A stretch of 64,000 nucleotides of DNA from an uncultured Ignavibacteriales bacterium. GTDB taxonomy: Bacteria; Zixibacteria; MSB-5A5; GN15; FEB-12. The notes beneath the pieces were generated by a model that did no database searches, was not told the DNA's origin, and saw only the letters and a list, made by a program, of their open reading frames with translations. Shown in pieces: positions 251 to 59,508 of this stretch; position 1 is the first letter of the stretch, and each line of letters begins with the position of its first letter. The stretch is taken from contig CAYXJN010000008.1 of NCBI GenBank assembly GCA_964464605.1, positions 1 through 64,000 on the forward strand. Reading direction: 5' to 3'. The position numbers and the translations under genes were made by a program.

Positions 251-2650
251 ATGATTCCAAGACGAGGTAACTTTTCGCGAGTAGGGCTAACCGGCATGCT
301 GATAGTTCTTTTCAGCATCAGTGCTGTTTCGGCCCGCGTGTACGAAAACGCCGCACAACCGAAGCCGTTTATCATTCCCGGTAAAGTAACCGTCGTGTTT
401 CACGACGGTGTCAACATCGAGAAAAAAAGCCAATCGTTTGGCCGTGTAAATTTTGGTATTCCAACGCTTGATCAAATTTTTGATAAAGCCCAGGCATCGG
501 CGGCTACCCGTATCTTCAACGGCAAAACCACCCAGTTTGCGACGGCAAGCGGAACGCTTGATTTATCCCGCTATTTTGAAATTACGGTGCCGGAAGATCA
601 AGATATAGCGGCGCTGGTTGAAGAATTAAAGCAAAATCCGAATGTAAAAATTGCCGAACCGGTGTGGGCGCTACCCTTGTTAGCGTCACCGAATGATCCG
701 TCATGGCCTAGCCAATGGGCAATGGAGCCGGCCGGTCCGGATCCTAATTTTTACACGGCTTGGGATACCGAAACCGGATCAGACAGTATCGTGTATGCGA
801 ACATCGATTCCGGAACACAGTATTCTCACCGTGATCTTGAACCGAATATCTGGGTGAATCCCGAAGAAGATATAGATGGTGACGGTGCGGTGTATGATCT
901 CGATGATCTCAATGGCATCGACGAAGACGGCAACGGCGTCATTGATGATCTTATCGGATACGACTTTTTTACCGGTCTGGGCGGAGGTGTTCAGGCGGGT
1001 GAAGATGCCGGTGTACCGGATTCAGACCCGAAAGACTGGGACGGACACGGTACACACGTAGCCGGTATTGTAGCTGCCGCAAATAACAACGGATTGGACG
1101 TAACCGGCGTAGCCGGCGGATGGTACGGCGGTCACCGTTCGTATCGCGGTGTTCGTATCATGGCTCTCCGAGTGGGTGCAACCGGATCGGACGGAAACGG
1201 CTATGTGAACTCCAATAACTGCGGAACGGCAATTGAATACGCCGCTGAAAACGGCGCTCGTGTTATTAACTGCAGCTGGGGATCATCCGGTACTGCTACG
1301 ATGATTGCCGGTATGGCTGCCTGCGCTTCTATGGGCGTTACCGTATGTCACGCCGCCGGAAATGATAATGCTGATGATCCTGATTATCTTGATGCCGATC
1401 CGAGCACGACCGTCTTATCGGTCGCGTCACTTGGTCCGAGCTCTGATGTTCGGTCCAGTTTTTCGAACTACGGAACATGGGTTGACGTTTCTGCTCCGGG
1501 TTCAAGCATTTTGAGCACCTATTCGAATCATTACACGGCAACAACCGCTACCCTTTCCGGTACCTCAATGGCCTCACCGATGGTAGCGGGTCTTGCTATG
1601 CTCATTCGTTCGGCCAAGCCGTCATTAAGCAAAGCACGTGTCGATAGCATAATCACAGCAACTGCTGATAATATCGATGCTTCGAATCCGACCTTCATTG
1701 GTCAGCTTGGCACCGGCCGTATTAATGCTGTCAGTGCACTGGCCGGTTTACCTATCGCGAAATTCACCTCAAGTATTTCTGATGGTAACGTTCCGCATAT
1801 GGTTAACTTTACGGATGCCTCTCCGGGCAGCCCATCGGCGTGGAAATGGTACTTTGGAACGGGTGATTCTTCGACACTACAGAATCCTTCATTTACGTAT
1901 CTTAATCCCGGCATCTATGATGTATCACTGCTTACGACTACCGGTAATCCGTTTGGTCCCGGTGAAGAACATCTGAAACGGTATGTCTGGGCCCGTGCTG
2001 ATACGATTAAGATCGATTCCGTTCAGGGTGTAAAGGGCAGCAACGTTGTTCTGCCGATTCGTTTGCACAACACGGCTCTGGTAAAAGAAATTAACTTTGC
2101 GTTTGAAGTGGAAGGCGCATCCGGTATTTCATATGTCAGTCACGACGTAACCGGGTTGAGAACGAGTTATTTCAGTTCAGTTACGATTGACGGATTCGAA
2201 TCACTTTCCAAAGTAAATATCAAGCTACGCTCCAGCGGTACCGGACAATCAGACTATCTTACTCCTGACACCGGTGTTGTGCTTAAGATAACCTTTGCGA
2301 TCGACTCAAGCGCCGTAACCGGAGTATATGTCGTGGACTCCGCCACGGTTGCCGGAACAAAGAAACCCAATATCTCCACGATTTACGGTGATTATTGGCC
2401 TATTCATATTCCGGGTAAAATCGTCGTTGCTGGATGTTGCGTCGGTATTCGCGGCAATGTGAACAATATAGGTGGTATTACAGTTGCCGACTTGACCTAT
2501 CTCGTGCAGTATCTGTTCAACGAAGGCGCAGCGCCTGCGTGTACAGAAGAAGCAAATGTGAACGGTCTAAGTTCTATTACTGTTGCCGATCTTACGTATT
2601 TAGTACAATACTTATTCAACGGCGGAGCACAGCCCCCGTCTTGCCCGTGA
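251..2650 (+). CDS. Secreted S8 subtilisin-like peptidase with PKD, cohesin-like and C-terminal dockerin domains
   Basis: Signal peptide; triad motifs IDSG, HGTHVAG, GTSMASP; PKD (WYFGTG...PGIYDVSL); ~140-aa beta-rich domain; duplicated TVADLTYLVQYLFN. Start 251 preferred over 221. Confidence 0.9.
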   Translation: MIPRRGNFSRVGLTGMLIVLFSISAVSARVYENAAQPKPFIIPGKVTVVFHDGVNIEKKSQSFGRVNFGIPTLDQIFDKAQASAATRIFNGKTTQFATASGTLDLSRYFEITVPEDQDIAALVEELKQNPNVKIAEPVWALPLLASPNDPSWPSQWAMEPAGPDPNFYTAWDTETGSDSIVYANIDSGTQYSHRDLEPNIWVNPEEDIDGDGAVYDLDDLNGIDEDGNGVIDDLIGYDFFTGLGGGVQAGEDAGVPDSDPKDWDGHGTHVAGIVAAANNNGLDVTGVAGGWYGGHRSYRGVRIMALRVGATGSDGNGYVNSNNCGTAIEYAAENGARVINCSWGSSGTATMIAGMAACASMGVTVCHAAGNDNADDPDYLDADPSTTVLSVASLGPSSDVRSSFSNYGTWVDVSAPGSSILSTYSNHYTATTATLSGTSMASPMVAGLAMLIRSAKPSLSKARVDSIITATADNIDASNPTFIGQLGTGRINAVSALAGLPIAKFTSSISDGNVPHMVNFTDASPGSPSAWKWYFGTGDSSTLQNPSFTYLNPGIYDVSLLTTTGNPFGPGEEHLKRYVWARADTIKIDSVQGVKGSNVVLPIRLHNTALVKEINFAFEVEGASGISYVSHDVTGLRTSYFSSVTIDGFESLSKVNIKLRSSGTGQSDYLTPDTGVVLKITFAIDSSAVTGVYVVDSATVAGTKKPNISTIYGDYWPIHIPGKIVVAGCCVGIRGNVNNIGGITVADLTYLVQYLFNEGAAPACTEEANVNGLSSITVADLTYLVQYLFNGGAQPPSCP

Positions 2651-2672
2651 TCGACTTTACATAACGTAAATA

Positions 2673-2712
2673 AAACGGCCGTAAGTCATTGACTTACGGC
2701 CGTTTGCTTTTT
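2673..2712 (+). terminator. Intrinsic terminator
   Basis: 15-bp stem AAACGGCCGTAAGTC/GACTTACGGCCGTTT with T-rich tail after the S8 stop. Confidence 0.75.
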
Positions 2713-2949
2713 CGCGACATAGAGATATTTTGTTGCGTAACGGTCAATAAATTACCGTTTAATTTCGAGAATATCTTTGCCTTAGGTATTTGAACTTTTA
2801 TATATTATTGCACGTCATTTCGTATACATACGTCTGCTTACGTGTAAGAGTGGTATGTTTGTACGTTTTGCGTGTATATAGCCCTTTGTTTTTCAAAAAA
2901 CTGAAACAGAAGAAAAGAGAACCATAGTATGTCATGGAGACCCCAACGA

Positions 2950-3879
2950 ATGAAACAAATGATAAATTGTCTGGCTGTTGTCTTATTGCTTTTGGCCGGT
3001 TCTGTCCAGTCTCAGGAAGTTGTCGCCGGTGCGTATGAGCTCGTAGCTGTAGATAGCGCGGCGTTCAAAGCCGGTACCACTGATACGATTAATTCCGGTA
3101 GTACCATGCGGTTCTGGATTACGATGGACAATAATTCGGCTTTCAACGTCGTCGGTTCGAGTAATGGGTTTGAAGTTTATTCACCGGACGGTGCGACGTG
3201 GACAACCACCACGATCGATACGTTTGCTCATGGTGGCGTAGCGGTTTTCGGCAAGACGCAGTATGACGGTGGCTACTTCTTTAACACCTTTAGCATCAAC
3301 GGTCAGGGTTCTGACACGCTCGCTATCGGCGGTTTTTCAATTTTTGGTGCCGGTATGGATCCGAATACCCGTTACGACAGTGCCTATACGCTTACCGCAG
3401 GTCCGATTCCTGCCGGTATCGCGGGTGGCAATCATGGCAAACACCTTTGCATTGATTCAATATTCACCTACGGCCCGAATGAATGGACATGGAGCGATAT
3501 CGTCGATCCGACGGTCATTCGTCCGGCGTGGGGCGGTCCGTACTGCTGGGTAATTTGGGATCAACAAACCCCGGTAAAAGAACATGGTGGCGCACTCCCC
3601 GGTTCGTTTGCCTTGGCACAGAACTACCCGAATCCGTTCAACCCGAGCACCGAAATTAAGTTCGACATCCCTGAGAAATCACATGTCACGCTTACTATCT
3701 ACAACGTGCTTGGTCAGGAAGTAAAAGTGCTGGTGAACGAAGACCTCTCCGCTGGTAACTACAGCGAAGTCTGGGATGGTCGCGATGCCCGTGGCAAACA
3801 GGTTACGACCGGCGTTTACTTCTACAAACTCCAGGCTGGCACTTGGTCTGAAACCAAAAAGATGACTTTCTTGAAGTAG
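2950..3879 (+). CDS. Secreted protein with T9SS type A/FlgD-like C-terminal sorting domain; N-terminal beta-sandwich, possibly cohesin-like
   Basis: Signal peptide; QNYPNPFNPSTEIKF...WDGRD...GVYFYKL...KKMTFLK tail; GGAGA upstream of ATG 2950. Confidence 0.8.
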   Translation: MKQMINCLAVVLLLLAGSVQSQEVVAGAYELVAVDSAAFKAGTTDTINSGSTMRFWITMDNNSAFNVVGSSNGFEVYSPDGATWTTTTIDTFAHGGVAVFGKTQYDGGYFFNTFSINGQGSDTLAIGGFSIFGAGMDPNTRYDSAYTLTAGPIPAGIAGGNHGKHLCIDSIFTYGPNEWTWSDIVDPTVIRPAWGGPYCWVIWDQQTPVKEHGGALPGSFALAQNYPNPFNPSTEIKFDIPEKSHVTLTIYNVLGQEVKVLVNEDLSAGNYSEVWDGRDARGKQVTTGVYFYKLQAGTWSETKKMTFLK

Positions 3880-9426: not shown

Positions 9427-9437
9427 ATGGGCTATGT

Positions 9438-24235: not shown

Positions 24236-24292
24236 AGTGAGAGATAATACGGCAGAAGCAGTCACCGGGCAAGTAATCAGTCGATCCGGTTT

Positions 24293-26524
24293 TTAGAATT
24301 GCAGGCGGTATAGTAGTTTGAAATTTCGCGCCGCTTCCGGCATGACCGCGTTTACCCGGGACAAATGGTTGCGGTATTCAGTGCTGGCGATGTTTTCCAC
24401 ATTCAGTATCAGGCTGTGCAGGATTTTTTTCGTGGAAAAATGATACTGGCTCAATAGATCGAATACGATATACCCGGCAGTTGGTTCTTCAAACTCTCCA
24501 AGCTTGTCCTGTTTGTCGGCAGCCCGAATTCTGAGCTTCGTCAGCAGTGAAGTGCGTGGAGAGTATCCAATCCAGACATGCCCCTGTAATGGAGGAATGA
24601 GCGGTAAATTACTGTTGTCGTCAGCCACTTTACCACGCACGAAGGAGATATTTCCACCCAAACTAAACTGCTTAAGAGGTTGTACGTCTGCGCTGAGTTC
24701 AAAACCGTAGAAATGCGCATCCCGTCCACGATATTGATAGCGAAGGAGGCGGCCCGTTTCGCCGGGGCCGTATTCGTATTCACCGGTGTTTGATGCATAA
24801 ATATATCTGTCAAACCAATTTCTAAAAAAAGACGCCGTAATTTTTGTATGTTCTCGACGAAAACGAGTTGTCCATTCCAAGCTGACTCCGGACTCTGAAG
24901 ACAGGTTAGCGTTACCGATTTCATAGGAATAAGCGGCGATATGCGGCCCTTCAGAAAACAATTCTTCGATCCCCGGAGCGTTAAATGAACGGAGAACCGT
25001 TCCTTCCATAGTGATTGATTTGGCAATTGGAAATTGCATAGCAAGCGAAGCAGAAATTCCCTGAAAGTCCCTCCGACGTATGATACCGGTCTTGTTTGTA
25101 TCGATAGCTTCAGGTGACGTAGAGCGATAATCAAATCGAAAGGCTGTTTTGAATAGCAGGCTGTCGACGTATATTTCTTTGTACAAATAAGCCGCCGCTG
25201 CTCGTTCGATAGCATCGGGGGTGAAGGTCAGACAGGTTTGAGCATAGTCACGATATTCAGCCCAGACACCGAGTGTGCCGCCGCCACGCAGCCATGATGG
25301 AGACAGCATAAGCTGTGCGGTTGCGTTATATTGCAGAACGCCAAAGCCAACTCCGCAGACATCTTCAAGTTCCAGTTCGCGATGAAAATATCGGTTGTAA
25401 CTTGTGCGAAGCACGAAGCGTTGAATAACATCGTGGTTAATGCCATATTCAAAATAGCTGTCTATATTACTGCGTTCGAGTTCAATTGTTACTCCATTTT
25501 TGTGACCGCCCAAGAATCCGCCGGGAATACCATACTCGGTAACGTATCTGCTTGTCTCAATACCAAGTCGAAATCGATCCCGTATATACCCACCGCCGAC
25601 AAAGTAACTATGCGTATGAATTTCTGTATTGTTTAGTTTACCGTTAGGAGTGCGCAAATCACCGGAAAGGCGGCCTTCCGTTCCAACCGTTGCGACAAGG
25701 TTTTGATACGGAATCACTACAGTTACATCGCCGCCCAATCCATCGTTCACTGTTTCCGATTGTGTACTTATGTTGCCGGATATTTGTGGTGGCACAGAAG
25801 CCGGAATACGTTCGCGCCGAACATTGATGATACCGCCAACTGTATTAGAACCAAATAATAGAGCCGCCGGGCCTCGGATGACTTCAATTGACGTCGAACC
25901 TATAGGATCAATAACGACTGCGTGATCCGCAGATGTTGATGAAAGATCACCCGTTTTTTCTCCATCTTCCAGAACCAGCAGTCGATTTCCTCCCAATCCG
26001 CGAAGTACCGGACGAGCCGGGGCTGGCCCCATTGTACGTTGGGCAATTCCGGGTTCATTGGCGATAGTCTCCGCAACGGTACGGCCTAATTTTTCCTCAA
26101 GATTACGGCTGGATACAGTGATTGCTCTCGCTTTGTATGATGGGTCATTATGACCACTACTATCGGTGATTGTGAGACTTTGTAGTTGGATTGGATCGGA
26201 TTGCATCGAGAACGACAGCACAGTATCAGTGGACAGAAATATTTCACGGCGGATATCTGTGTATCCGATTAGGTGCAGTAAAATCGTGTGTTTTCCAGCA
26301 GGAAGATGCTGTATCAGAAAGTGTCCACTGGAATCCGTTGCAATTCGTTTATTCTGCGTTTCAATCGAGATACTGACACCACCAAGCGAAGCGCCCGTAC
26401 GCTGATCATATACTGTACCGTTCACGTCATACAATATCTGCGGATCAGCTTTATCCGGAACTGCAACCAATCCTGTCAGAAAGCAGCAGTTCCATAGGCA
26501 TCGCTTTATGAGCGTTGCTTTCAC
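24293..26524 (-). CDS. TonB-dependent receptor, ZnuD-like metal transporter
   Basis: N-terminal carboxypeptidase-regulatory-like domain; plug RPVLRG...DHAV...IEVIRGPAALLFG; ELFSEGPH; terminal Phe. Confidence 0.9.
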   Translation of the reverse strand: MKATLIKRCLWNCCFLTGLVAVPDKADPQILYDVNGTVYDQRTGASLGGVSISIETQNKRIATDSSGHFLIQHLPAGKHTILLHLIGYTDIRREIFLSTDTVLSFSMQSDPIQLQSLTITDSSGHNDPSYKARAITVSSRNLEEKLGRTVAETIANEPGIAQRTMGPAPARPVLRGLGGNRLLVLEDGEKTGDLSSTSADHAVVIDPIGSTSIEVIRGPAALLFGSNTVGGIINVRRERIPASVPPQISGNISTQSETVNDGLGGDVTVVIPYQNLVATVGTEGRLSGDLRTPNGKLNNTEIHTHSYFVGGGYIRDRFRLGIETSRYVTEYGIPGGFLGGHKNGVTIELERSNIDSYFEYGINHDVIQRFVLRTSYNRYFHRELELEDVCGVGFGVLQYNATAQLMLSPSWLRGGGTLGVWAEYRDYAQTCLTFTPDAIERAAAAYLYKEIYVDSLLFKTAFRFDYRSTSPEAIDTNKTGIIRRRDFQGISASLAMQFPIAKSITMEGTVLRSFNAPGIEELFSEGPHIAAYSYEIGNANLSSESGVSLEWTTRFRREHTKITASFFRNWFDRYIYASNTGEYEYGPGETGRLLRYQYRGRDAHFYGFELSADVQPLKQFSLGGNISFVRGKVADDNSNLPLIPPLQGHVWIGYSPRTSLLTKLRIRAADKQDKLGEFEEPTAGYIVFDLLSQYHFSTKKILHSLILNVENIASTEYRNHLSRVNAVMPEAARNFKLLYRLQF

Positions 26525-27804: not shown

Positions 27805-27823
27805 TAAATGTTTCCTTGTAATT

Positions 27824-29260: not shown

Positions 29261-29342
29261 ACAATATCTCCCTTCGCGCCAGATGTAGCTCACCTGACAC
29301 GGTATAGTTGTTCAAAAAAGTGTTATGAGTAACTGCTGAAAA

Positions 29343-40800: not shown

Positions 40801-41469
40801 CTCGGCTTGCAGCATGGTGTACCGCTTGAAGAATTTGTCGAAGCATTTTTATTCAGCCGCTTTGAGCCGAATGGATTCGTGCAGGGTAACAAAGCGATCA
40901 AACGTTCGACCTCGATTATCGATTATATTTTCCGCGAACTTGCGATTACCTATTTGAGCCGCAATGATCTCGCGCATGTAACTGAAGAAGATCTGCGTGG
41001 TGATACGATTGGTATTCCCGCGGATGAATCGATTGAATTTGAAGATGAAGAACCGGGCGGACAAGGAACTTCCGGTTCACGCATAGCAGATGACATTCAC
41101 ACTTCACACTTGGCTGTTACGTATTCGCCCAATGGGACGGGTGAAGGCGGTAACGGATCAGGCGAGACAGGTTCACATTCAACGGCAAAGGGACTTTCCG
41201 GAGGACAGGGACATGACACACAGATGGAGTATTCGGTTGCAGCAGCGGGCGTTGGCACAGAAGAAACGGCTAATGAGCATGCCGTCGCGACCGCAAGTGG
41301 TAGTCGTACCGGCGGGAGAACCGTCGAACAGGTCCATTACCAAATCAGAGCCGCGCGGATGAAAGGGTACGAAGGAGATATGTGCGGTGAATGCGGACAG
41401 TTTACGATGGTTCGCAACGGCACATGTTTGAAATGCGTTACCTGCGGCGCTACCAGTGGATGTAGTTGA
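37810..41469 (+). CDS. nrdJ: Class II (adenosylcobalamin-dependent) ribonucleotide reductase
   Basis: [41 protein letters not shown]-type domain, C-terminal CxxC...CxxC; GGAGG before ATG 37810. Confidence 0.96.
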
Positions 41470-47209: not shown

Positions 47210-50200
47210 CTACGGACAAGTCGGGAACTCTCCGTTATTGAATAAGTAAGCTACGAGATAGCTTACGTCAGCTGTTGTAATGATACCGATACCGTTTACA
47301 TTTCCAGAATTATAGTATACTGGCGCTGGACCGCCGTTATACAGATATTGTACTAAGTAGACCACATCTTGGATAGATGGGTTGGTAGACTGATTTTTTG
47401 CGTCGCCGCATACTGACCAAAATGAGTGAACCGCGGACCATTCGCTCAACATGGTATCGGCGGGATTGCTGGTAAAATGGTTGCGCGCTCGTACTTTCCA
47501 GTACCAATTTTTGACTCTGAACAAGTTAGTAGCGGCCAACGAAGATACCGACAGATTTGTAGAATCTATTAACGGAGAGCCAAAAGCAGGGTCGTCATCT
47601 ACTAACAGTTTATACCGTACTGCATAGTTTCCCGGAATGTCATTCCAGTCGAAGGCCGGGCTGTTTTCAGTCTGAATGCTGGCATTGGCAGGTGCGCTAA
47701 GCGTTATGGCAGGCGTACAGCCGATTCCTTTGGCTCCTATCGGAAGGCCGACACAAGCGCCGGGTACTAAACTTGGCCCACACGGAGAATCCCAGCGCAG
47801 CGAATAATCACCCGTCGCATAATTGCAATATATGGGATTTTGTGCAATCAGTGTCCCACTTGGAATTGTAGGATTGAATGTACTACCGGAAGCAATATTG
47901 GAAGTATTCTGATAAAAATTGGAACAACTCAAAGTAATACTAGCGCTGCTGCTTGCCTTAATCGCACCGCCGAGGTTGTTGGTGATATTTAACCGGTTTA
48001 GTGTAACAATAGCATTTGCGCCGGTTGCATCAACTACCGAGCCGTTGTTGGTGCTTGAATTTTTGACGAAGGTATTTGCGAAAATATTTGCTTTTCCTTC
48101 AACACGAATCGCTCCACCGCCATTAACAGCAAGATTTGAATCAAAAACACAGCTATCGATTTGGACATCAATACTACTCATAGTATCAACGAATATAGCG
48201 CCGCCAACACCCGTACCGGATGCCGAATTACCCTTGAATGTACAATTTGAAATTCTTGCGTGGGAATGCCTTCCGAAATAAATAGCCCCACCTTTTTGCG
48301 ACGTATTGTTCCCTAAAAAACTACATGCCTTCAAGCTGGGATTGTATGTCTGAAAATCGCTCGCAAAATAACACGCACCTCCATTAGGAGCAGTGCAGTT
48401 CGTGAAAATGCAACTGTCTATGGTTGGCGAGCCGGAGCCAAAGTAAATGCCGCCGCCATACTGCGGATCATTTCCATTTTGAATGGTTATTCCAACTAAC
48501 TTGCAATCAGGCGTTTCGAAATTATCAAACTGAAAAGCTCTTCCAGAACCTTGGCAATCGATAATAGTAGATGCCGCACCACCCGATGATCGGATAATGA
48601 GTTTCTTGCCGTTTACATCTAGATTTTTATTTCCACTACCTGTGTACGTTCCCGGTGCGATCACAATAGTATCATTGTCACGCGCAAAATCCAAGGCAGC
48701 TTGCAGTGAAGCGAATTGAGAAGGAACGGGAAGAATATTAGGAATATTAGGTACAACAACTGTTACTTGTAAATCCACATCTGGTGCACTTTGACAATTG
48801 CCGTCTGGGCAGGGAAGCCATATCGACTGACCATTGATGTTAGTTATTTTATATGCAACTGTTTCTACCCAGCAACCAGTTGAAGTCAAGGTACCATTCA
48901 CTATTCTAGCCCATGGGAACTGATCGTTTGCATTGGCAAAGGAGTAACCGTCAATGTCTCGAGGCCGTAAAATAACTGTCGGTGGTTGTGTTAAATTGTA
49001 TTGTGAAAAATCGAAGTAACGCTTTGCACTATACGTCTGCGTGAAGTATGTGCCGGCTGCAATCCCATGAAGTAATTCTTGACGGTAAAAACTATGCTGA
49101 TGAGTACCTTGTGTTTGAGTAAGAGTAGTGTATGGTCCACTCATGCGAATAAAATTGTGTTTTCTGACATAATTTACTGCTGAGTCCGCAGATACAATTC
49201 CCCAGCCATAAACATCGTCATATCCACTTGCACCGCGATCACGCGCAGTTAGTTGTACAACAGCTTCAATTTCATCTGCTAAAAGTGACGGTTCAGCCGC
49301 TTTTAGAAGAGAAATAATTCCAGTAACCATTGCTGTTGAAGCCGAAGTACCATACTCTATAGTATATCCTCCATTATGACTAATCATAGCAATAAAGTCC
49401 CCAGGCGCAGTAACCTGTATTCCATGGCCTTGATTTGAAAAAGGCTCAATACTTCCAGTTATCGTGTTATTTGCTCCAACGGAAAAAACAGATTTAAAAG
49501 CTGCGGGATAAGTGGCTGCAGAACTAGCATCATTTCCAGTGGAAGCTACTAAAACATGATCCGATAACCATGCATATCCACACGCAGAAGCTTGATCAGA
49601 TGCGGCATTCCAATTTCTAAAACTCATATTAATCGGATTAGCTTGTTCTTCAGTGCATCCCCATATTGCAATAGGAATGTTATTGCTACTGAGGGTGTAA
49701 AGTTTTGCTCTCCAGTTTATTCCTGCTACTCCAATATAGTTATTGGTATTAGCCACCATAATACCAGCCATTCTAGTACCGTGACCAACGTTGTCAGTTT
49801 GCAGTCCTCCTGCAATACGTCCCGCAAGATCCGGATGCGATCCTTGGACACCCGTATCAATTAACCCAATTTTTTGATTTGCTTTACCCCGCGTCTTTTC
49901 CCATGCAACCGATACTCCGGTGGCACCTTGTGTAGAATCAGTTCGCCAATTGCGCAAATAGCCTTGTGTAGGGTTGTAAAAAATAGTGTCAGTCGGAAAA
50001 ATTTCAGTCATTTCTGTTATAGGAACTGGCGAAGTAAAAGCTGCACCATCTATAGCCATATATCCCGAATCAAATGCTGCCCAATCAATTTCTGACGAGA
50101 AATACACGCGATAAATTAGAGAAAGATTATTCAGTTTGACCACTTTTCCACTGGGACGTGTGAATATAGTATCGACGGGATTGAAATCTGGGAATACTTT

Positions 50201-50431
50201 CTTTATTGAATCAGCACCACAGCTATCCAAGTAACTATAGATCGATATTGGCATGTACTGTGTATCGATAGGAATAACAGACAAAACTCCGAAATCAAAA
50301 GATTGTGAACCGTCAACGATAATAGCTTGTGCCGGTTCAATTTGAGATTCAGCTTGGACAAGGATTGCTGCTGTCGCGATTAGGTAAAAACAAAAGTTTT
50401 TGACGTTCGTTAGTAACGAAAAATGTTTCAT
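47210..50431 (-). CDS. Secreted S8 peptidase with parallel beta-helix, Ig-like and dockerin domains; AT-rich
   Basis: IDTG, GHGTRMAG, GTSAST; GGAI/N-x-A helix repeats; WYWKVRA; divergent dockerin ending TCP. Confidence 0.85.
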   Translation of the reverse strand: MKHFSLLTNVKNFCFYLIATAAILVQAESQIEPAQAIIVDGSQSFDFGVLSVIPIDTQYMPISIYSYLDSCGADSIKKVFPDFNPVDTIFTRPSGKVVKLNNLSLIYRVYFSSEIDWAAFDSGYMAIDGAAFTSPVPITEMTEIFPTDTIFYNPTQGYLRNWRTDSTQGATGVSVAWEKTRGKANQKIGLIDTGVQGSHPDLAGRIAGGLQTDNVGHGTRMAGIMVANTNNYIGVAGINWRAKLYTLSSNNIPIAIWGCTEEQANPINMSFRNWNAASDQASACGYAWLSDHVLVASTGNDASSAATYPAAFKSVFSVGANNTITGSIEPFSNQGHGIQVTAPGDFIAMISHNGGYTIEYGTSASTAMVTGIISLLKAAEPSLLADEIEAVVQLTARDRGASGYDDVYGWGIVSADSAVNYVRKHNFIRMSGPYTTLTQTQGTHQHSFYRQELLHGIAAGTYFTQTYSAKRYFDFSQYNLTQPPTVILRPRDIDGYSFANANDQFPWARIVNGTLTSTGCWVETVAYKITNINGQSIWLPCPDGNCQSAPDVDLQVTVVVPNIPNILPVPSQFASLQAALDFARDNDTIVIAPGTYTGSGNKNLDVNGKKLIIRSSGGAASTIIDCQGSGRAFQFDNFETPDCKLVGITIQNGNDPQYGGGIYFGSGSPTIDSCIFTNCTAPNGGACYFASDFQTYNPSLKACSFLGNNTSQKGGAIYFGRHSHARISNCTFKGNSASGTGVGGAIFVDTMSSIDVQIDSCVFDSNLAVNGGGAIRVEGKANIFANTFVKNSSTNNGSVVDATGANAIVTLNRLNITNNLGGAIKASSSASITLSCSNFYQNTSNIASGSTFNPTIPSGTLIAQNPIYCNYATGDYSLRWDSPCGPSLVPGACVGLPIGAKGIGCTPAITLSAPANASIQTENSPAFDWNDIPGNYAVRYKLLVDDDPAFGSPLIDSTNLSVSSLAATNLFRVKNWYWKVRARNHFTSNPADTMLSEWSAVHSFWSVCGDAKNQSTNPSIQDVVYLVQYLYNGGPAPVYYNSGNVNGIGIITTADVSYLVAYLFNNGEFPTCP

Positions 50432-50497
50432 TTGCGCTCCCTTTGTATAATCAGTTGCATATTTGTAGTTTTATCAATGGGTTAATTTTAAAAGCTG

Positions 50498-51376: not shown

Positions 51377-51434
51377 ACTACCTTTATTCCAATAACGAAT
51401 TGAACTACATATTTGTCAAATACAGTGTCATACA

Positions 51435-53021
51435 TCATTTCACAAGCAGCATCTTACGGGTTAGTTTTTGGTCGTCGAGCTTAATGGTGTAGAAATACAA
51501 TCCTGAAGCGAAGTTATTGGCATCCCAACTCACTAAGTTCGTGCCAATGTCTGCGATTCCCCGGACAGTGTGAACGACTTCACCGAGGATATTACGGATA
51601 GTCAAGAGAAACGGAGTTTTTGACACTGACTCAAAGCTAATAGTCGTCGTTCCATTAAATGGATTAGGATAGTTTTGATGTAAGATAAAAGATTGAGGTA
51701 ACTCAGCTTCAGGCTCATCACCTACACCTGTCGAAATACAACCCATACCATAAACTCCAACACGTTCTCCACACAAACTTTGACCTTCTAGGCATGATGA
51801 AGATTGGCTCAATTGATAGTCATAAGAAATAGGGTCACAAAATTGAGGGTCTAAAGAAAAATTATTGTTTTGGTTTTGTAGAGAATCAAAAGTTGGTAAC
51901 CAGTCGCCATACTCGTTTCCAAAAATATCAGTACAGTCAATGGAGATAGTGGCTGAAGAATCAAGATAAATACTTTCGGCTTCTTCATTAAAGGCAACAA
52001 TGCTCTTATTGAGAGTAACAGCTGAGGTATGGCAGAATATTCCTGCGCCAGTACCAGTGAAGAAATCTGGCCATCCTTGAGCTATATTCCTAGCAATTGT
52101 GCAATTAGTTATCGTTGGGTTTGTGAGATAACAATATAGACCGCCACCTTTGCCATCATCCCATACCACACCAAAGTATGTCTTTGCAATGTTGCCCGTT
52201 ATTTCACAATATGATAGTTCCGGTAAGCCATCACGCAAGTATATGCCGCCACCGATACCTGCACCGACAGGCTCAATACCTCCATATATCTCAGTGATGT
52301 TGCTTGTGATCCTGCATGAATCAATCCTCAAATTTGAGTTAGTGGAAGATACCCCCCCCCCCACATTGCTTTGGTTATTCCTGATATGACAGTCGATGAT
52401 TTTAGAATTTGAATTATCACAATGAACTCCTCCCCCAAGTCCTCTTATTGTAAACCCAGAGTAATTTAAAGCTACGTTAGAAGATATAGTGCATTTGCTT
52501 ACAGTTGGGGAGCTATTAAAAATAGCCAGTCCCCCCCCCGAGTTTTGCGCTCGGTTTTGTGTGATGATACATTCGGTAACTATTGGAGAAGAACCTGAAT
52601 CACAGAGAATTCCGCCTCCGTTTGATTCAGTCAGCATTGCGTTATCCGGGGCATAGCCGTTTTGGATAGTTAGGCCTTGCAGTATTGAAAGTGAATCTTC
52701 GCTGGAATGAAAAATGAACCCGCGATGGGGACTAATGGAGTCGGCCTGGCAGTCGATGATGGTGTTTGCGGCGCCGTTAACCGATTTCACGACAATCGCT
52801 TTCCCCAGAAAGTCGATATCCCGGTTGCCGTCGCCGGTGTAGGTGCCGTCGTTAATCAGTACCGTATCAAAATCAACCGCGGCATTGATAGCGCTTTGAA
52901 TTGTACCGTAATCCTCCGGAACGCGGAGAGTTGAAGCCGATACTTGCAATGCGGCCAATGAACAAAAAAGTATTGACCACAATACGCCGCCGATGCTATT
53001 CAGCCGTTTGGCTATTCCCAT
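51435..53021 (-). CDS. Secreted right-handed beta-helix protein with T9SS type A sorting domain
   Basis: VPEDYGTIQSAI, repeated GGG-I/L/V units, QNYPNPFN...YFY...RKMLLVK. Confidence 0.85.
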   Translation of the reverse strand: MGIAKRLNSIGGVLWSILFCSLAALQVSASTLRVPEDYGTIQSAINAAVDFDTVLINDGTYTGDGNRDIDFLGKAIVVKSVNGAANTIIDCQADSISPHRGFIFHSSEDSLSILQGLTIQNGYAPDNAMLTESNGGGILCDSGSSPIVTECIITQNRAQNSGGGLAIFNSSPTVSKCTISSNVALNYSGFTIRGLGGGVHCDNSNSKIIDCHIRNNQSNVGGGVSSTNSNLRIDSCRITSNITEIYGGIEPVGAGIGGGIYLRDGLPELSYCEITGNIAKTYFGVVWDDGKGGGLYCYLTNPTITNCTIARNIAQGWPDFFTGTGAGIFCHTSAVTLNKSIVAFNEEAESIYLDSSATISIDCTDIFGNEYGDWLPTFDSLQNQNNNFSLDPQFCDPISYDYQLSQSSSCLEGQSLCGERVGVYGMGCISTGVGDEPEAELPQSFILHQNYPNPFNGTTTISFESVSKTPFLLTIRNILGEVVHTVRGIADIGTNLVSWDANNFASGLYFYTIKLDDQKLTRKMLLVK

Positions 53022-53157: not shown

Positions 53158-55710
53158 TTACGGACAAGCTAAGGCGGGGCCGGAGTTGAACAGATAACCG
53201 ACCAAATACGTCAAATCAGCAATCGTAATACCACCAAGTCCATTTACATTCGCTGCATTAAGATTCGGCGGTGTTGGGCCGCCGTTAAACAAATAGCTGA
53301 CCAAGAATGTTAAATCCGCAATAGTTGGTCCTGCGCCGTTGCCGTTGCAATCACCGCAGATAAATTCACATGCATTACCAACACCGTTTTCATTGGTGTC
53401 TTCCTGTAACGGATTCGCTACGTTCGGGCAGTTATCGCATGCGCTTCCGACGCCGTCTGTATCAGGATCTTCCTGAAGCGGGTTCGCAACTAACGGGCAA
53501 TTGTCAGATGCGGTCGGAACACCGTCGCCGTCACCGTCGGCACTGAACGGCGGGAAAACGATTTTATCGACCCAGACACGATCAAGCGCCAATGCGGTGC
53601 TGCCGTTTTTTACATACGTCCACATAAAGGTGTGGTTGCCCGCTGTGACCGGGAATGATACCTCTTTCCAACCCGTATTGCCTGACCAGACACCCTTTTC
53701 AACACCGTCGATAAAGAAGCGAAGGCGATCGTTCGTTGGCTGTGATGATGTGCGCAGCACGAATGAGACAGTGCCGGAGTCAAGATTTGTGAGGGGGAGG
53801 GACATGGAAGAGCTTTGATTGTTGCCGACCGGGCCGGATCGTGCGCTGTACATGCCGCTGTTTACATAACCGCCGTCGATTATCCATGAAGAATTACCGG
53901 ACATCTGCCAGGTATTGTTCGTGAATGTTCCGCTTTCGAAACCATCGAAGGCGCGTCCGACGGGAATGGTGAATGTTTCTTCAACCGGGTCAGCACCAAG
54001 AGTAGTGAGAATGCCGGTAAGTGTTAGATCAGATTGTGCAAATGAAGGAGGCAGTGCGATGACATGGTCAATAGTTGTGCGATTAACGGCGCCGTTGGCA
54101 GATATTGTAGGGAACGGTGTCGTTGTGGTTATAACCTGCGCATCGGCGGTGTACAAACTACAAGCGGCAGCCATCGCGCTTGTACCGCCGCTGTTGCGGG
54201 CAGCAATGCGTAACACAAACGTATCGCCGGGTAAAATCGGTTTTGCGCTCTGACCGAGATAGCCAAGTAGTGCATTGCCGGGGACAGGTTTCAGCAGTTT
54301 GTTTACCGTAACTGCTCCGCCGTTCGGTACTACTATACCCCATACCGTGTCGGGAATATATCCGGGTGCGGAGAAACGAAGATTATACGTTCCTGCCGGA
54401 AGCATGCGATAGTAGTCACCAAGATCCGGGTCGGTTCGGACATCCGAGCTGTCGTTATCATACGAAAGTACGGTGACGAGTGCTTCAAGCGGATTACCAC
54501 TGATTGAATCGGTGACGATACCATTGATGCCAATTTGCGCCTGCCGTAAAAACTGGAACAAAGAGATGCGGTTATAATTCCAATGATTCGGCAATTGAGA
54601 GCCGCTGAGCAACTTTACGTTTGAGAGTTCAATCGTTATTTCTTTGGCGCCATGCCAGTAGTTCATGTAATCCTGACGGCCGCCCAACACTTCGTACCAA
54701 TCCCATCCGTGCGTGATACCGTCGTTGAGATCATTCATGTATCCGGCAGGAGCATGGGTTTGACAGGATTCGGCATATTGACGGCAGATTGACTGATACC
54801 AGATATCATCGGCGTGTCGCTCCTGAATAGCATCCCACGGATAATTCACCACTTCTGCGCCGCCGTGAAAGTTTGCCGCGATAACAAAATTCTGCGCGAC
54901 GGCAAGATTCATCATTGCCACGGTTTCCGGCTGGTATGAGTTGCCGTCCGGGTGTGCGCCGGCATGCGGGTCGGGGAAATTACGGTTTAAATCGATATTG
55001 TTTGCATTATAGCGGGTTGCGCCGCTGACGGAGCTATTGCCGGTGCGATAGGTGCCATCCGGATTCGCTAACGGATTAATCCAGATTTCCATGTTATCGA
55101 CCATGTTGGTGATGTCGGGATTGACACCATATCCGGTTAAGAGTGAATCGATCATGCGGAGCATGAGCACATAGCCGGTGGTTTCATCACCGTGCATTGA
55201 GCTCGTATACAGCACTTCCGGTTCTGCTTCTTCGGTGGCGACGTTATCCGAGATTCGCGCGATGAGCATTTGCCGTCCCTGAACCGTCGTGCCGATATTC
55301 TGAATCTGGCAGAGGTTCGGGTAGTTGGTGGCGAAATTGTTCATCATCGTGACATAATCAGTATAGGTTGGGTAGCTGTCCCATACTTGCGCATCCTTCA
55401 CGCTTGCGGCCATTTCTGGCACAGTTTGCGTGTTGGGAAGCGGCAGGAAGGTGTAGCTATAACCGAGCGCCTGAAACCGCGCCAACTGTTGTTCGTTGGC
55501 GAAGGCAAGCATGACGGTATCCGAAACTCCGTCGATATCAATAACGCGGGTGAGTCGGCTGATATCTTCACGATCTTTGATAATCACGCGAAGATAATAT
55601 TCCGTTGCCGCCTTACTTTGCGTTAGCGGCAGTGCTGCTAAAACCAACAAAACGAACATCAGGAGACCAAGTCGCGCCATGATGTTACCGGTAAAATGTC
55701 TCCGTTTCAT
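53158..55710 (-). CDS. Secreted M14 zinc carboxypeptidase with TSP3 repeats and dockerin
   Basis: HGDE, NPDG, DLNRNF, NFHGG...YPWD, GGRQD, ITIE; DNCP repeats; duplicated TIADLT. Confidence 0.9.
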   Translation of the reverse strand: MKRRHFTGNIMARLGLLMFVLLVLAALPLTQSKAATEYYLRVIIKDREDISRLTRVIDIDGVSDTVMLAFANEQQLARFQALGYSYTFLPLPNTQTVPEMAASVKDAQVWDSYPTYTDYVTMMNNFATNYPNLCQIQNIGTTVQGRQMLIARISDNVATEEAEPEVLYTSSMHGDETTGYVLMLRMIDSLLTGYGVNPDITNMVDNMEIWINPLANPDGTYRTGNSSVSGATRYNANNIDLNRNFPDPHAGAHPDGNSYQPETVAMMNLAVAQNFVIAANFHGGAEVVNYPWDAIQERHADDIWYQSICRQYAESCQTHAPAGYMNDLNDGITHGWDWYEVLGGRQDYMNYWHGAKEITIELSNVKLLSGSQLPNHWNYNRISLFQFLRQAQIGINGIVTDSISGNPLEALVTVLSYDNDSSDVRTDPDLGDYYRMLPAGTYNLRFSAPGYIPDTVWGIVVPNGGAVTVNKLLKPVPGNALLGYLGQSAKPILPGDTFVLRIAARNSGGTSAMAAACSLYTADAQVITTTTPFPTISANGAVNRTTIDHVIALPPSFAQSDLTLTGILTTLGADPVEETFTIPVGRAFDGFESGTFTNNTWQMSGNSSWIIDGGYVNSGMYSARSGPVGNNQSSSMSLPLTNLDSGTVSFVLRTSSQPTNDRLRFFIDGVEKGVWSGNTGWKEVSFPVTAGNHTFMWTYVKNGSTALALDRVWVDKIVFPPFSADGDGDGVPTASDNCPLVANPLQEDPDTDGVGSACDNCPNVANPLQEDTNENGVGNACEFICGDCNGNGAGPTIADLTFLVSYLFNGGPTPPNLNAANVNGLGGITIADLTYLVGYLFNSGPALACP

Positions 55711-55755
55711 ATTCCTCTTTCGATTCACAAGATGACTTCCATTTCATTGTTCCTA

Positions 55756-58700
55756 TCACGGGCAGTTAAGCGGCGGGCCGCTGTTAAATAGGAACTGGAC
55801 TAAATAGGTCAGATCGGCAATGGTCAATGTTCCGCTGCTGTTTACATCGGCTGCCTGTGGTACAGGTGGCGGAACACCGCTGTTGAACAGATACTGCACC
55901 AAATAAATCAGATCAGCGATAGTAACGTTACCGTTGTTGTTTACGTCACCACACACAAACGACGGACCACCGGTTTGCACCTGGAGCGTTCCGAATATTT
56001 CCAGCGGGTTTTCATTGCCATCCGGATCATTGCTCGTGATGACAATGGTGGAATGGTAGGTGCCGGAATCCAATCCGGATGAATTCGTGTGCGCGATAAT
56101 CGTATCGGCTTCACCCGGGTTGACTGTGCCATTCAATTGGCTCAGTGTCAGCCATTGATACGGCTGATAGAACCGTACCGCCAAACTGTTGTGCAGATAG
56201 CTTGAAAGATAAGCTACTTCCAATCCATCCGAACCGGCCGGATTTTCAATACCGACCGCACAATTCAAGATATCGAAACCGGGGGCGATGTTCTGATACT
56301 GGAACGTAACCGAACCATCCGCTTCGAGAATAACTTCGGCGTTGATGATATCACCGACCGAGCCCTGATATTCAGGATAGTTTTTAAACTGAATAATCAG
56401 TTTGCTGCCGATAGTCTGCATATACACTTTGCCGCCGGGGTTGTTCAAATTGGTCGGATCAAGATCATCCCACAACCAGGCGAGAATATTGTTCGGTGTC
56501 GAAGCGGTCGGTATAGTCGCTTTGAAACGGGAGCCCATATTGTCATTCGTAAATCCAATAATGCCGTTCGAGCCGATATAGAATTGCGTGTAAACCTGAC
56601 CGTAATACGGGAAACTGAATCCGATATTGAATGGTCCAACGGAGTTATCATCACTCAAGCCGCCGGTCACATCGGTTCCGGTTCCGGAAATGTCGATCCA
56701 TGAGAATGTCGGGCCGCCGGATTCATCAGAATCAATCCAGTAGTAGCCGAAATTGTCCGGTCCACCCGCATCCTTGTTGACTGGGAAACCGGTGCGGGGG
56801 TCATCTGACCCTTTTGGATCTTTGTACTGCTCGAATCCTTCCGGATACTCGCGGCGCGCCGGTTCGGTTAATCCGGCAAAGCGCAATTGTTCGAAACGAT
56901 CGCGTGTTTTATTCGGGGTCGGAATCACTGCTGCCTGATAGACAAGCGTGCCCGGGCCGAGGTTAGTGATAATCAGATTGTCAGTTGTCGAATCATCCGG
57001 CGCAAGGGTGTGATTGATGCTAAACGGTGTCGCATTAATATCCGGCGCAGGGAGTGATTCGATACGAACGTTATCGACAAACCAGTCATCACTGGCGCCG
57101 ACACTGGCGCTGTTGCGAATTCGCAGACGGAAATTCGGACCGTAGGCATCACCGGGGAGCCAGACAAAGACGGAATCATACGTGGTCATGTCCGGAGCGG
57201 TTCCTAAATGACGGTGCAGCTCTTTCCAGGTTCCGGTACTGTCGCGGTATTCGAATACCAAGTCATCATTAACGTCCGGTGATTCACCGCCGCCTTTACA
57301 TTCAAAGAAGTAGCGAACGGCAACACTGGTTTCAAGGGACAGATCAATTGCCTGCGTGGAAAGCGTATCTGCTCCCACCGGGCTGCCATTCATGCGAAGA
57401 CTGTACGGGGCGCTCGGTTCACTGATACCGACGGTATCGATCGTCGCGCCGACATTATGCACCCATTTACCGGCATCCACTGCCGTAGCCGGGAAATTGT
57501 CGACAAAAGGAAGCAAGAGCGGCTCACCTTCGGAAACGGTGCGGAGAGTAGACGCATCAAAGGTGCTGCCTTGCGCAATCGATGTCGCGGTGATAGTGGC
57601 TAAATCAAAATTGCCAAATACACTGGATGGAACAATAACGCTGACATCGAACTGGTACGTGCCGTTCGGCGCCAAGGTCGGCGTCGATGAAACCGTCATC
57701 GTATGCGCCGTATTCCAAAGCGTTGTTGTCCAGACATTACCTGATGCAGCCAGCGTGTAGTTATCACTGATAGCCCCTAAGTTGGTAACAGTGAGTGAAT
57801 ACCACACGGTATCGTCTACTGCACCGAACGCGGTATCGGAAGCGGGAGTGAGTGAAACGGCGTAGTCGAGTACTGAGAAGCTGAGCGTATCGGTAACATC
57901 GAATTCACCGGTCGTGTCAGCAGCATAGAGATAGTAATCGATATCTGTACCGGCTGATTGTGCGGGAATAGTTCCTTCGTATTCATCTGGGTTACCGGTC
58001 GCAGTAAGCTGCTGTCCTGTCCAGCTTCCGGCGTTTATACGATAGAACAATTGCAAAGTCGGCAGGTCTAATGGTTCTGGCGAAATGATTTCGCAGATGA
58101 CGGAATAATCATTCAGCGTGTCTTGCGTGTCATTCAGCGGCGTGTGTGTAATTTTAACTCCGGCGGCATCACGGCCATCAAGGATCAATGTTCCAGTATT
58201 GTCCGGGTCGAGCCACTCTTTCAACCGGGTTGCTACTGTTCCACCGGTCGCCCATGATTTTGAAAACTTGCCATACCAGTCGGAGGTCAGCGATGCGCAT
58301 GAAGCGAATCCACCGTGGAGCTGACCGGTGATGCGATGATTTTGATCGAAAAGCGGTGAACCGGAAGAACCGGGTTCGGTTGTTCCGTCATCCCACATCG
58401 TAATCCGCCAGTGGGAGCCATTACCGGCGCCATTTTCTAAATAGGTGGTTGATGTGGTCGGGTCGTTATCGAATGAAATCTTTTTGATATCTCCATCCGG
58501 ATGGTGAATACCAACTGAGTTGGTGGATGGTGCATCCACTGCGTTCCAACCGGCATAATAGACACCGTAGGAGTCCGGCGGTTGTTCGCTCAGCTCCAAA
58601 AGCGCGAAGTCAGAAAAAGCATTGGTGGCGCGAAGGGTGGAGCCGGAGACTGACATCCAGAGCGGGCCGTCGATATTCGCACAGCTCGGGCTTTCATAGT

Positions 58701-59508
58701 TGAAAATGAATACCCAGGTCGCTTCGCCGCCAAGGCAGTGATTTGCGGTAAGGAAGTACGGCTTCAAATCCTGACGAACGTTGTTTACCATCGCACCGGT
58801 ACACAAACGAAACCCGCCGGAGGTAGTGATAAGGGCAACGGAGCGTTTTTCCGCTTCCCATGGGGCGCCTTCGGGACAGTTGACGTTGTTATTGCAGGAG
58901 CCGGAGCCGCCGAAATCGGAAGCATCCTTTACCGTGCTGCGGTCGAATAAATTGCGGTAGGCATGCACGATACGGCTGATCTGTACAATTCCCCATCCGC
59001 GAACATCAGCCGGTTCATAGTATTCAAGGATGCTGACATCCCCTTTGACCGGTGAAGTCGCAAACATGCCGCTTTCTTTGTTGTTGTCAGAGGTGAACGC
59101 ACCCAAAGTGACGGAGCGGTCTTCATTGTAAATATGGAATGTCGCACCTTCAGGGAGCCAGAAGCGTTTGAAGATAAGATTAATGGAATGAGCTTTGGGA
59201 GCATCGATACGCAGCCGCCAGACACGGCCGCCGTCGGCGAGATCTTCCCATTTTCCTGAATTGTCGAGATTGTAATCAACATCGAAGGGAAACCCGAAGC
59301 GGAGCGGGATTCCTTTTTGCGATTCGGCAGAGTCCTCAGCCAATAACTTGGGAACGTCGATTGCGTCCATTATTATTCTGGGAATCTGCGGCGAAAGCCC
59401 TTTGGTGACACTTAGGGGGGAGCCCCCCTTACTGACTTGAGCCTGACCCGATACGGCCATAACCACTGTCAATGCGAGAACGCATCCAATGTGCGTGAGG
59501 TTACGCAT
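55756..59508 (-). CDS. Secreted S1 lysyl-endopeptidase-like protease, multidomain, with dockerin
   Basis: CTG, LTANHC, DFALLEL, HHPDGDIKKIS, TEPGSSGSPLF, GQLHGG; GGPDNFGYYW domain; duplicated TIADL. Confidence 0.9.
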   Translation of the reverse strand: MRNLTHIGCVLALTVVMAVSGQAQVSKGGSPLSVTKGLSPQIPRIIMDAIDVPKLLAEDSAESQKGIPLRFGFPFDVDYNLDNSGKWEDLADGGRVWRLRIDAPKAHSINLIFKRFWLPEGATFHIYNEDRSVTLGAFTSDNNKESGMFATSPVKGDVSILEYYEPADVRGWGIVQISRIVHAYRNLFDRSTVKDASDFGGSGSCNNNVNCPEGAPWEAEKRSVALITTSGGFRLCTGAMVNNVRQDLKPYFLTANHCLGGEATWVFIFNYESPSCANIDGPLWMSVSGSTLRATNAFSDFALLELSEQPPDSYGVYYAGWNAVDAPSTNSVGIHHPDGDIKKISFDNDPTTSTTYLENGAGNGSHWRITMWDDGTTEPGSSGSPLFDQNHRITGQLHGGFASCASLTSDWYGKFSKSWATGGTVATRLKEWLDPDNTGTLILDGRDAAGVKITHTPLNDTQDTLNDYSVICEIISPEPLDLPTLQLFYRINAGSWTGQQLTATGNPDEYEGTIPAQSAGTDIDYYLYAADTTGEFDVTDTLSFSVLDYAVSLTPASDTAFGAVDDTVWYSLTVTNLGAISDNYTLAASGNVWTTTLWNTAHTMTVSSTPTLAPNGTYQFDVSVIVPSSVFGNFDLATITATSIAQGSTFDASTLRTVSEGEPLLLPFVDNFPATAVDAGKWVHNVGATIDTVGISEPSAPYSLRMNGSPVGADTLSTQAIDLSLETSVAVRYFFECKGGGESPDVNDDLVFEYRDSTGTWKELHRHLGTAPDMTTYDSVFVWLPGDAYGPNFRLRIRNSASVGASDDWFVDNVRIESLPAPDINATPFSINHTLAPDDSTTDNLIITNLGPGTLVYQAAVIPTPNKTRDRFEQLRFAGLTEPARREYPEGFEQYKDPKGSDDPRTGFPVNKDAGGPDNFGYYWIDSDESGGPTFSWIDISGTGTDVTGGLSDDNSVGPFNIGFSFPYYGQVYTQFYIGSNGIIGFTNDNMGSRFKATIPTASTPNNILAWLWDDLDPTNLNNPGGKVYMQTIGSKLIIQFKNYPEYQGSVGDIINAEVILEADGSVTFQYQNIAPGFDILNCAVGIENPAGSDGLEVAYLSSYLHNSLAVRFYQPYQWLTLSQLNGTVNPGEADTIIAHTNSSGLDSGTYHSTIVITSNDPDGNENPLEIFGTLQVQTGGPSFVCGDVNNNGNVTIADLIYLVQYLFNSGVPPPVPQAADVNSSGTLTIADLTYLVQFLFNSGPPLNCP

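Follow-up and report, generated by a model that had tools for sequence, protein, structure and literature searches.

Cohesin-dockerin pairs are the glue of cellulosomes in monoderm bacteria; the clostridial and ruminococcal hosts of these complexes are monoderms that use SLH or sortase anchors, and clostridial dockerins carry a species-specific signature. Choice-of-anchor B and V proteins, M14 peptidases and ASPIC/FG-GAP proteins are typical cargo of a type IX secretion system (T9SS) elsewhere. The described systems closest to the one considered here are both in silico proposals: a cellulosome-like system in Ca. Stygibacter of the Cloacimonadota (Williams et al. 2021, PMC8542988) and the hypothetical 'planctosome' of freshwater Planctomycetes (Nemodlikiaceae; Andrei et al. 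2019, PMC6461901). As far as the portions of the reports cited here go, Ruminococcus flavefaciens FD-1 has 222 dockerin proteins with 16 peptidase modules, many of them not carbohydrate-active enzymes (PMC2930009), Acetivibrio mesophilus has a scaffoldin that joins S8, cohesin and dockerin (PMC11557425), and the T9SS of Bacteroidota involves SprA, PorV and PorU (PMC10994853). Here we describe a 64,000-nt stretch of DNA (the window), located on contig C8 of genome G000, that carries five genes for secreted proteins ending in a dockerin. We propose, with a probability of about 0.62, that the C-terminal dockerin is a general sorting or docking tag used in place of the T9SS tail, the C-terminal domain (CTD), on some 60 secreted proteins, and that it would bind the cohesins of CTD proteins, thereby displaying its cargo on the cell surface. 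The evidence for tag replacement is the new element, and the system is real and phylum-wide. Positions outside the window are given as contig and position in G000 (e.g., C4:255546), other G numbers denote the genomes of relatives, and the phylum comparison set comprises 121 genomes.

Dockerins and cohesins of the window and its genome

The dockerin and cohesin features of the window are the following.

221..2650, +: secreted S8 subtilase with prodomain, catalytic domain (aa 193-485), PKD, cohesin and C-terminal dockerin (Pfam, motifs, AlphaFold2)
1982..2422, +: type-I-like cohesin domain within this first S8 (Pfam Cohesin, E 0.002; Foldseek)
2432..2647, +: dockerin of the first S8, with four cysteines (CC..C..CP) (dockerin hidden Markov model [HMM], PDB profile match, AlphaFold2)
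2929..3879, +: signal peptide, divergent cohesin-fold domain (nt 3025-3564) and T9SS CTD (Pfam CTD families, family HMM, AlphaFold2)
27917..29293, -: three acidic His-containing repeats and a dockerin (27920-28141) (dockerin HMM, paralogue BLASTP)
47210..50431, -: S8, beta-helix-like region and divergent dockerin (47213-47428), in an AT-richer stretch (Pfam, dockerin HMM, motifs)
53158..55728, -: M14 zinc carboxypeptidase with CarboxypepD_reg, TSP3 and a dockerin (53161-53376) (Pfam, dockerin HMM, motifs)
55756..59538, -: S1 lysyl-endopeptidase-like protease with a dockerin (55759-55965) (Pfam, dockerin HMM, motifs)

The original prediction had claimed five dockerin-tagged secreted proteins in the window, four of them peptidases and none a glycoside hydrolase, and in this it was right. 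The five open reading frames (ORFs) lie where they were placed and all close with a loop-helix motif that is duplicated and followed by CP and the stop codon, the families S8, S8, M14 and trypsin-like are recovered by Pfam, and none of the five contains a glycoside hydrolase domain (Pfam, E<=0.01). The coordinates above are those of the longest frames; the shorter starts given earlier (251, 29260, 55710 and 59508) are plausible start codons. Two details needed adjustment, as the tail consensus with Y before LF does not extend to the His-rich protein, which has F instead of Y in both halves, and the label 'His-rich' describes an enrichment that is real but modest (18 of 458 residues, 3.9% versus 1.8% genome-wide). 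This protein has no Pfam match. Catalytic motifs are kept in all four peptidases: IDSG/HGTHVAG/GTSMASP in the first S8, IDTG/HGTRMAG/GTSASTA in the second (atypical after Ser), HGDE/NRNF/FHGG/IELS in the M14 and TANHC/SDFAL/GSSGSP in the S1. The S1 gene lies 27 bp upstream of the M14 gene and the two probably form an operon. The dockerin of the second S8 is the most divergent of the five, the G+C content drops to 0.40-0.43 at about 48000-52000, spanning this gene and its neighbours, and the gene was possibly acquired and retagged.

Among the five tails, only that of the S1 protease reaches Pfam Dockerin_1 (protein scan, E 8.6e-8). An HMM built from all five and iterated to convergence retrieves 62 ORFs in G000, 61 of them at E<1e-15; these 61, three of which are short and may be gene fragments, are the strong set used below. 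Their tail profile matches 26 PDB sequences at E<=0.01, all 26 being dockerins or dockerin-bearing cellulosome proteins, and the AlphaFold2 model of the first S8 tail has two helices with pLDDT 85-98. Pfam itself places dockerins at 25 sites in G000 (E<=0.01). Thus, the window tails are true dockerins, type I-like (PF00404). The dockerin lies within 12 aa of the C-terminus in 59 of the 61 strong ORFs, and one strong dockerin is N-terminal (C8:113545). With five dockerin genes per 64 kb, against 1.39 expected (single-window P 0.014), the window is the top of 48 bins; four other bins hold four each, so the clustering is not significant across bins and not remarkable.

The cargo, whose signal peptides were judged by eye, is broad. 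Recognized peptidases make up 15 of the 61 (eight S8, two M14, two S1, M12B, M43 and one MXAN_6640 HExxH family) and the other 46 include propellers (FG-GAP, SBBP, kelch), two GSDH, PhoD, one lysyl-oxidase-like protein, one C-type lectin, three paralogues of choice-of-anchor B (one of them scanned) and unknowns. No glycoside hydrolase family was found on the dockerin ORFs, at E<=1e-5 for the 57 outside the window and 0.01 for the 5 inside. On C7, just upstream of 167216 (+), the frame of a dockerin ORF extends further upstream through two TGA stops into amidase-like sequence (by eye), consistent with a broken gene or TGA read-through; G000 has selA and selB.

Two cohesin folds in the window had been overlooked: the first S8 contains one, and the gene after it (2929-3879) encodes the other. 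With fold assignments based on Foldseek and sequence profiles, both match the nine-stranded beta-sandwich of solved cohesins. For the S8 domain, Foldseek ranks type I cohesins highest (E 6e-11; TM by target length, 0.73-0.80); it lies directly before the S8 dockerin, and the AlphaFold2 model of the tandem (pLDDT 92) indicates that this protein bears both halves of a cohesin-dockerin pair. The 2929 domain, modelled at pLDDT 84, likewise has cohesins as its best matches (E 4e-6 to 7e-4, TM up to 0.72 by target), and its gene product is, on this model, a candidate single-cohesin surface anchor.

One outcome that would have refuted the original prediction, a genome devoid of cohesins, did not occur. 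A genome census with iterated HMMs identified 29 cohesin-like ORFs beside the 61 dockerin ORFs. Two of the 29 are weak assignments, and the S8-internal and 2929 families are the two that were folded and structure-searched. Twelve of the ORFs end in a CTD, 14 in the main dockerin type and three in neither. There are at most three cohesin-like domains per ORF and they are dissimilar; CTD proteins with two or three are C3:94003, C1:431182 and C1:435183. We found no tandem-cohesin scaffoldin among the 29, a result to be read with the proviso that more divergent cohesins could escape the profiles. Nine copies of a second, internal dockerin type are present, most of them in cohesin-dockerin-X-CTD proteins that cluster at C1:427-440 kb. 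The surrounding region (G000:C1:425900-446966; L007, L008) holds seven cohesin, dockerin and CTD genes, resembles a scaffoldin locus and also encodes an Ig-repeat dockerin protein of 2,185 aa. Two cohesin-like genes that stand alone, their products having a signal peptide and neither CTD nor dockerin (G000:C4:8081-9514; L019:4081-5514), lie about 3.5 kb upstream of porU-porV and are possible soluble or periplasmic dockerin binders.

Exchange of dockerin and CTD

Main-type dockerins and CTDs exclude one another in G000. None of the 61 dockerin ORFs is among the 43 of the CTD-HMM set (which includes about two false ones, such as a FlgD-like ORF). C1:431182, the sole overlap, has the second, internal dockerin type. 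Seventeen dockerin proteins have a CTD-tagged paralogue region of at least 120 aa in the same genome, for example the window S8 versus C7:61543 (36% over 605 aa) and C5:9741 versus C5:75113 (64% over 722 aa). An instance of alternative tags within the window involves the second S8 protein and the product of the gene listed below, which have about 400 aa in common at 29% identity.

51435..53021, -: beta-helix-like protein ending in a T9SS CTD (Pfam, CTD HMM, paralogue comparison)

For a comparison across genomes, choice-of-anchor B gave one sub-threshold match in five CTD-rich genomes and M14 was taken instead. The closest named homologues of the window M14 mostly bear the labels Zixibacteria, Zixiibacteriota or GN15, which suggests that G000 belongs there. 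Among the best 120 homologues, the tail is a dockerin in 101, a CTD in six (HMM), IPTL-CTERM-like in eight (by eye) and CTD-like but missed by the HMM in one, four are apparently cut short, and none has dockerin and CTD together. M14 orthologue regions were located at 16 places in 15 of 22 genomes; leaving out a distant G095 match and a second G079 match, the remaining 14 comprise eight with a dockerin, two IPTL-like, one cut off and three with a CTD, and in dockerin-poor genomes the orthologue is CTD-ended in three of three. The IPTL-CTERM-like ending is a third tail on the same enzyme in some Zixibacteria (P0066, P0072, P0074, P0085 and others; L168, L170), and G000 also has a PEP-CTERM protein (L028:6125-6898). 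The dockerin behaves as an interchangeable C-terminal tag.

A corresponding pattern is observed across the phylum. Dockerin and type-A cohesin profiles match the identical 118 of the 121 genomes. The three remaining genomes have SprA, Pfam dockerin counts of 0, 0 and 2 and Pfam cohesin counts of 0, 0 and 3; their CTD matches number 122, 139 and at least 150 (49, 51 and at least 42 per Mb), as compared with 28, 55, 57 and 79 (10-18 per Mb) in four dockerin-rich genomes (G000, G033, G017 and G083). Genomes almost without dockerins thus have about three times the CTD density. In counts that are loose first-look candidates, the dockerin and CTD densities sum to 45-68 per Mb in every family, and at the level of 19 families the two are negatively correlated (Spearman -0.60).

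Candidate receptor, proposed export route and competing explanations

The dockerins of G000 have a helix signature in common, distinct from the one in G033. Identity averages 0.48 and 0.55 within the two genomes and 0.33 between them, and the nearest neighbour comes from the same genome for 90 of 94 dockerins. The dockerins sampled from relatives were those that best matched the G000 profile (33 of 93 in G033, 5-7 in each of the others). Across seven genomes, the correct genome is assigned to 103 of 124 dockerins; for G023 and G004 the share is about half. The choice-of-anchor-B-like cohesin-dockerin proteins of G033 also bear the G033 signature. Fourfold-degenerate sites of the G000 dockerins are saturated (0.30-0.34 versus 0.29-0.31 expected), even in pairs more than 80% identical in protein. 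Because these sites are at chance level, it is selection on the protein that maintains the similarity, and recent duplication or gene conversion is ruled out as its source. This per-genome homogenization, confined to the protein level, is as would be expected with a shared receptor.

The best receptor candidate is C4:255546, a conserved 278-aa protein with a single cohesin and a CTD, full-length orthologues of which (34-60% identity) occur in most dockerin-rich families. Its cohesin family is matched at E<=1e-34 in 94 of the 121 genomes, and at no better than 6e-12 in 12 CTD-rich genomes, a group that was defined after the counts were seen and within a set of genomes that are kin. The window gene 2929-3879 and C5:3998 are further candidates for single-cohesin anchors. 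Structure prediction of a complex between the C4:255546 cohesin (49-row alignment) and the window S8 dockerin (61 rows) scored 0.14 and 0.17 against a mark of 0.32, was run without controls and is counted neither way.

G000 contains a T9SS core, consisting of the SprA translocon (573 bits over cut-off), the PorU sortase (711 bits over cut-off), PorV-family carrier genes with at least eight PorV-like paralogues, and CTD cargo (28 TIGR04183 matches). In the mechanism we favour, cargo with a signal peptide would be exported by Sec and its dockerin would bind a cohesin, with C4:255546 as the leading candidate. The CTD proteins would pass the outer membrane via SprA/PorV and be anchored by PorU, if these proteins act as in Bacteroidota. 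Dockerin cargo would travel with the CTD proteins or meet them outside. Co-export with a cohesin-CTD carrier is favoured because the alternative gate, a cluster on C11 resembling a type II secretion system (T2SS) or type IV pilus (T4P) and adjoining a dockerin metalloprotease, does not track dockerins: its secretin type is present in dockerin-poor G065 and G089 and, in dockerin-rich families f10, f11, f12 and f16, is found at paralogue level only (E>=2.7e-31; none in G102). On this distribution, the T2SS is ruled out as a universal route. Where one protein has cohesin as well as dockerin, as in the first S8, short chains or branches might form. In place of a single protease machine, the surface would then bear a mixed coat in which peptidases, oxidoreductases and nutrient-capture proteins stand beside adhesin-like propellers. 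A bolder and distinctly tentative version holds that most Zixibacteria have rewired their T9SS. Rather than each exoprotein having a CTD of its own, most of the surface proteome (some 60 to more than 150 proteins per genome) would bear a dockerin and be loaded, while periplasmic, onto a small, conserved carrier with cohesin and CTD, and the pair would be exported and anchored via SprA.

Several observations weigh against the proposed tag function. Dockerin tails persist in nine of the 12 CTD-rich genomes (3-43 matches; seen on M14), which have no clear C4:255546 orthologue, so this protein is not a universal receptor; its match is also weaker (1e-12 to 1e-35) in families f10, f11, f12, f16 and f19. 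One of the dockerin-poor genomes, G114, keeps two weak Pfam dockerins and three cohesins. The trade-off between dockerin and CTD may reflect one evolutionary event, the CTD-rich group perhaps being a single clade, and the phylum-wide counts are preliminary. Cohesin-like domains also serve as ordinary cargo modules under either tag (P0004 versus P0005). GldM (TIGR03517) has no match in G000 and GldK (TIGR03525) only one weak match (E 0.004, below cut-off), so the T9SS may be incomplete or atypical, with a divergent or different motor. Finally, among the loop positions that hold canonical Ca2+ ligands in dockerins (1, 3, 5, 9 and 12), position 12 is Asp in 60 of 61 and 61 of 61 dockerins and position 3 is Asn in 55 of 61, but position 5 is Asp in only 10 of 79 twelve-residue loops, position 9 is Thr in 89 of 106, and an N-terminal CC pair is present in 34 of 61. 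With loop positions degenerate and cysteines added, calcium dependence is uncertain.

The alternative that best survives, and which we nonetheless consider unlikely, is that the export machine, be it a T9SS carrier or the T2SS-like cluster, reads the dockerin directly and that cohesins are mostly structural or adhesive modules. The strict C-terminal position, the exclusivity with CTDs and the swaps with CTD and IPTL-CTERM would all suit such a signal, the PorV-like paralogues could have diverged to read it, and the C11 cluster sits beside a tagged metalloprotease. However, this explanation is at odds with the absence of cohesin and dockerin profiles from the same three genomes, with the distribution of the C11-type secretin and with the N-terminal dockerin of C8:113545.

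We give slightly less credence still to the complex that had been predicted from the window, a cellulosome-like protease assembly of the planctosome type in which endo- and exopeptidases and a metal-capture protein share one multi-cohesin scaffold and ptrB and pepF act on the released peptides. Peptidases are indeed the largest enzyme class of the cargo, no glycoside hydrolase is tagged, CTD proteins with two or three cohesin-like domains exist, and the 14 ORFs with cohesin and dockerin could chain. Yet three-quarters of the cargo are not recognized peptidases, peptidase and non-peptidase tails follow one common consensus, which indicates no protease-specific socket, there is no tandem array of similar cohesins to form the scaffold, and the cluster in the window is within the range of other bins. 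The proposed roles of ptrB and pepF do not stand either, as both fall outside the dockerin HMM matches and are linked to the tagged proteins by proximity alone. Both have a signal-peptide-like N-terminus; pepF (M3 peptidase; 63375-64000, -) runs past the window and encodes 625 aa (C8:63375-65252).

The His-rich protein, too, fits poorly in a protease complex, since it lies in a TonB-receptor locus. Window positions 24293-29678 (-) encode, consecutively, DUF2946, the His-rich dockerin protein, a paralogous likely lipoprotein and a TonB receptor; the genome is diderm and has TonB receptors.

24293..26524, -: TonB-dependent receptor, downstream of the His-rich gene (Pfam)
26521..27804, -: likely lipoprotein, a paralogue of the His-rich dockerin protein without dockerin (BLASTP; Cys after the signal peptide by eye)

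The two paralogues share 29% identity over 256 aa (BLASTP, E 2e-19). With the lipoprotein paralogue next to it and the TonB receptor downstream, the His-rich protein is more plausibly a differently anchored protein for nutrient capture. It is likely the metal-capture partner of the receptor, metal binding being predicted, and the region is a probable metal-uptake locus with one capture domain on two anchors.

Least probable is that the tail is a stabilizing or self-associating, disulphide-stapled module without a cohesin partner, on cargo that is periplasmic or loosely attached; the degenerate calcium loops, the added cysteines and the missing motor genes would fit, but the genome-specific homogenization, the co-occurrence with cohesins and the exchange for export tags on cargo typical of the surface are left unexplained.

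Remaining window features and comparison with described systems

Between the first S8 and the cohesin-CTD gene lies one further feature.

2673..2705, both strands: terminator-like 15-bp hairpin (consensus match only, on which its presumed function is based)

The hairpin makes an operon of the two genes (the second at 2929-3879) unlikely, and they are probably separate transcripts. The window also contains a low-GC stretch (0.395; 19980-22137) with crcB and an AlbA_2/HATPase_c_4 gene, thyX (23378-24265) and a class II (B12-dependent) ribonucleotide reductase (37780-41469, +).

In a whole diderm phylum, cohesin-dockerin pairs seem to take the place of the T9SS sorting signal, and the question arises how CTD-free cargo gets across the outer membrane. 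If the proposed reading is true, the known cargo rules of T9SS would be extended, it would be explained how an abundant sediment lineage retains proteases and nutrient-capture proteins at its surface, and many orthogonal, cysteine-containing cohesin-dockerin pairs would be available for protein assembly. Were the rewired-T9SS version also true, it would provide the first route by which cargo hitchhikes across an outer membrane through cohesin-dockerin pairing, with a genome-specific plug-and-socket code keeping enzymes private. In a literature search that covered neither subscription journals nor supplements, we found no paper joining Zixibacteria with dockerins or T9SS, and none joining Latescibacter with dockerin and cohesin; among the literature matches listed, no paper deals with CTD-free co-export and none contains the name 'Zixiibacter'.

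With the T9SS of Bacteroidota, G000 shares SprA, PorU and PorV-family genes and type A CTDs; it differs in the motor genes noted above and in that most of the cargo typical of that system is here dockerin-ended instead of CTD-ended. Ca. Stygibacter, as outlined in the passages of PMC8542988 cited here, is alike in being a Gram-negative candidate phylum member with dockerins on S8 and C25 peptidases and a cohesin protein whose T9SS-type CTD serves as the anchor. Its own features are one 3,755-aa scaffoldin with tandem cohesins and carbohydrate-binding modules and few cargo proteins, including GH18 and GH57, whereas G000 has 61 cargo proteins with no glycoside hydrolase and 29 cohesin-like ORFs of several divergent families, each with one to three cohesins. 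Dockerin/CTD swapping is seen here, and those passages make no mention of it.

The planctosome, according to the parts of PMC6461901 cited here, resembles our system as a non-cellulolytic cohesin-dockerin complex with M12B and M14 peptidases, a cohesin-dockerin adaptor and TSP3 repeats, and differs in its proposed lamin-tail anchor, where ours would be a T9SS CTD, and in being a small dedicated complex, not a secretome-wide tag. The system in G000 does not match this type, in which the cargo is mainly peptidases on a single anchor with lamin-tail and P-domains: only 15 of 61 tagged proteins are peptidases, and 12 cohesin ORFs are CTD-ended; no search aimed specifically at lamin-tail domains was made.

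Cellulosomes have in common with this system the cohesin and dockerin folds and a large dockerin repertoire with many non-enzymes. They have cellulases and tandem-cohesin scaffoldins, whereas here there is an outer membrane to cross, the calcium loops are degenerate and the dockerins have extra cysteines. Given that neither a tandem-cohesin primary scaffoldin nor a dockerin-bearing glycoside hydrolase was found in G000, the system is not a cellulosome. By analogy, it would instead work like the single-cohesin cell-surface anchoring of cellulosome producers, and the clostridial single-cohesin anchors OlpA and OlpC (PDB 3ul4, 4dh2) are among the Foldseek matches of the window cohesins.

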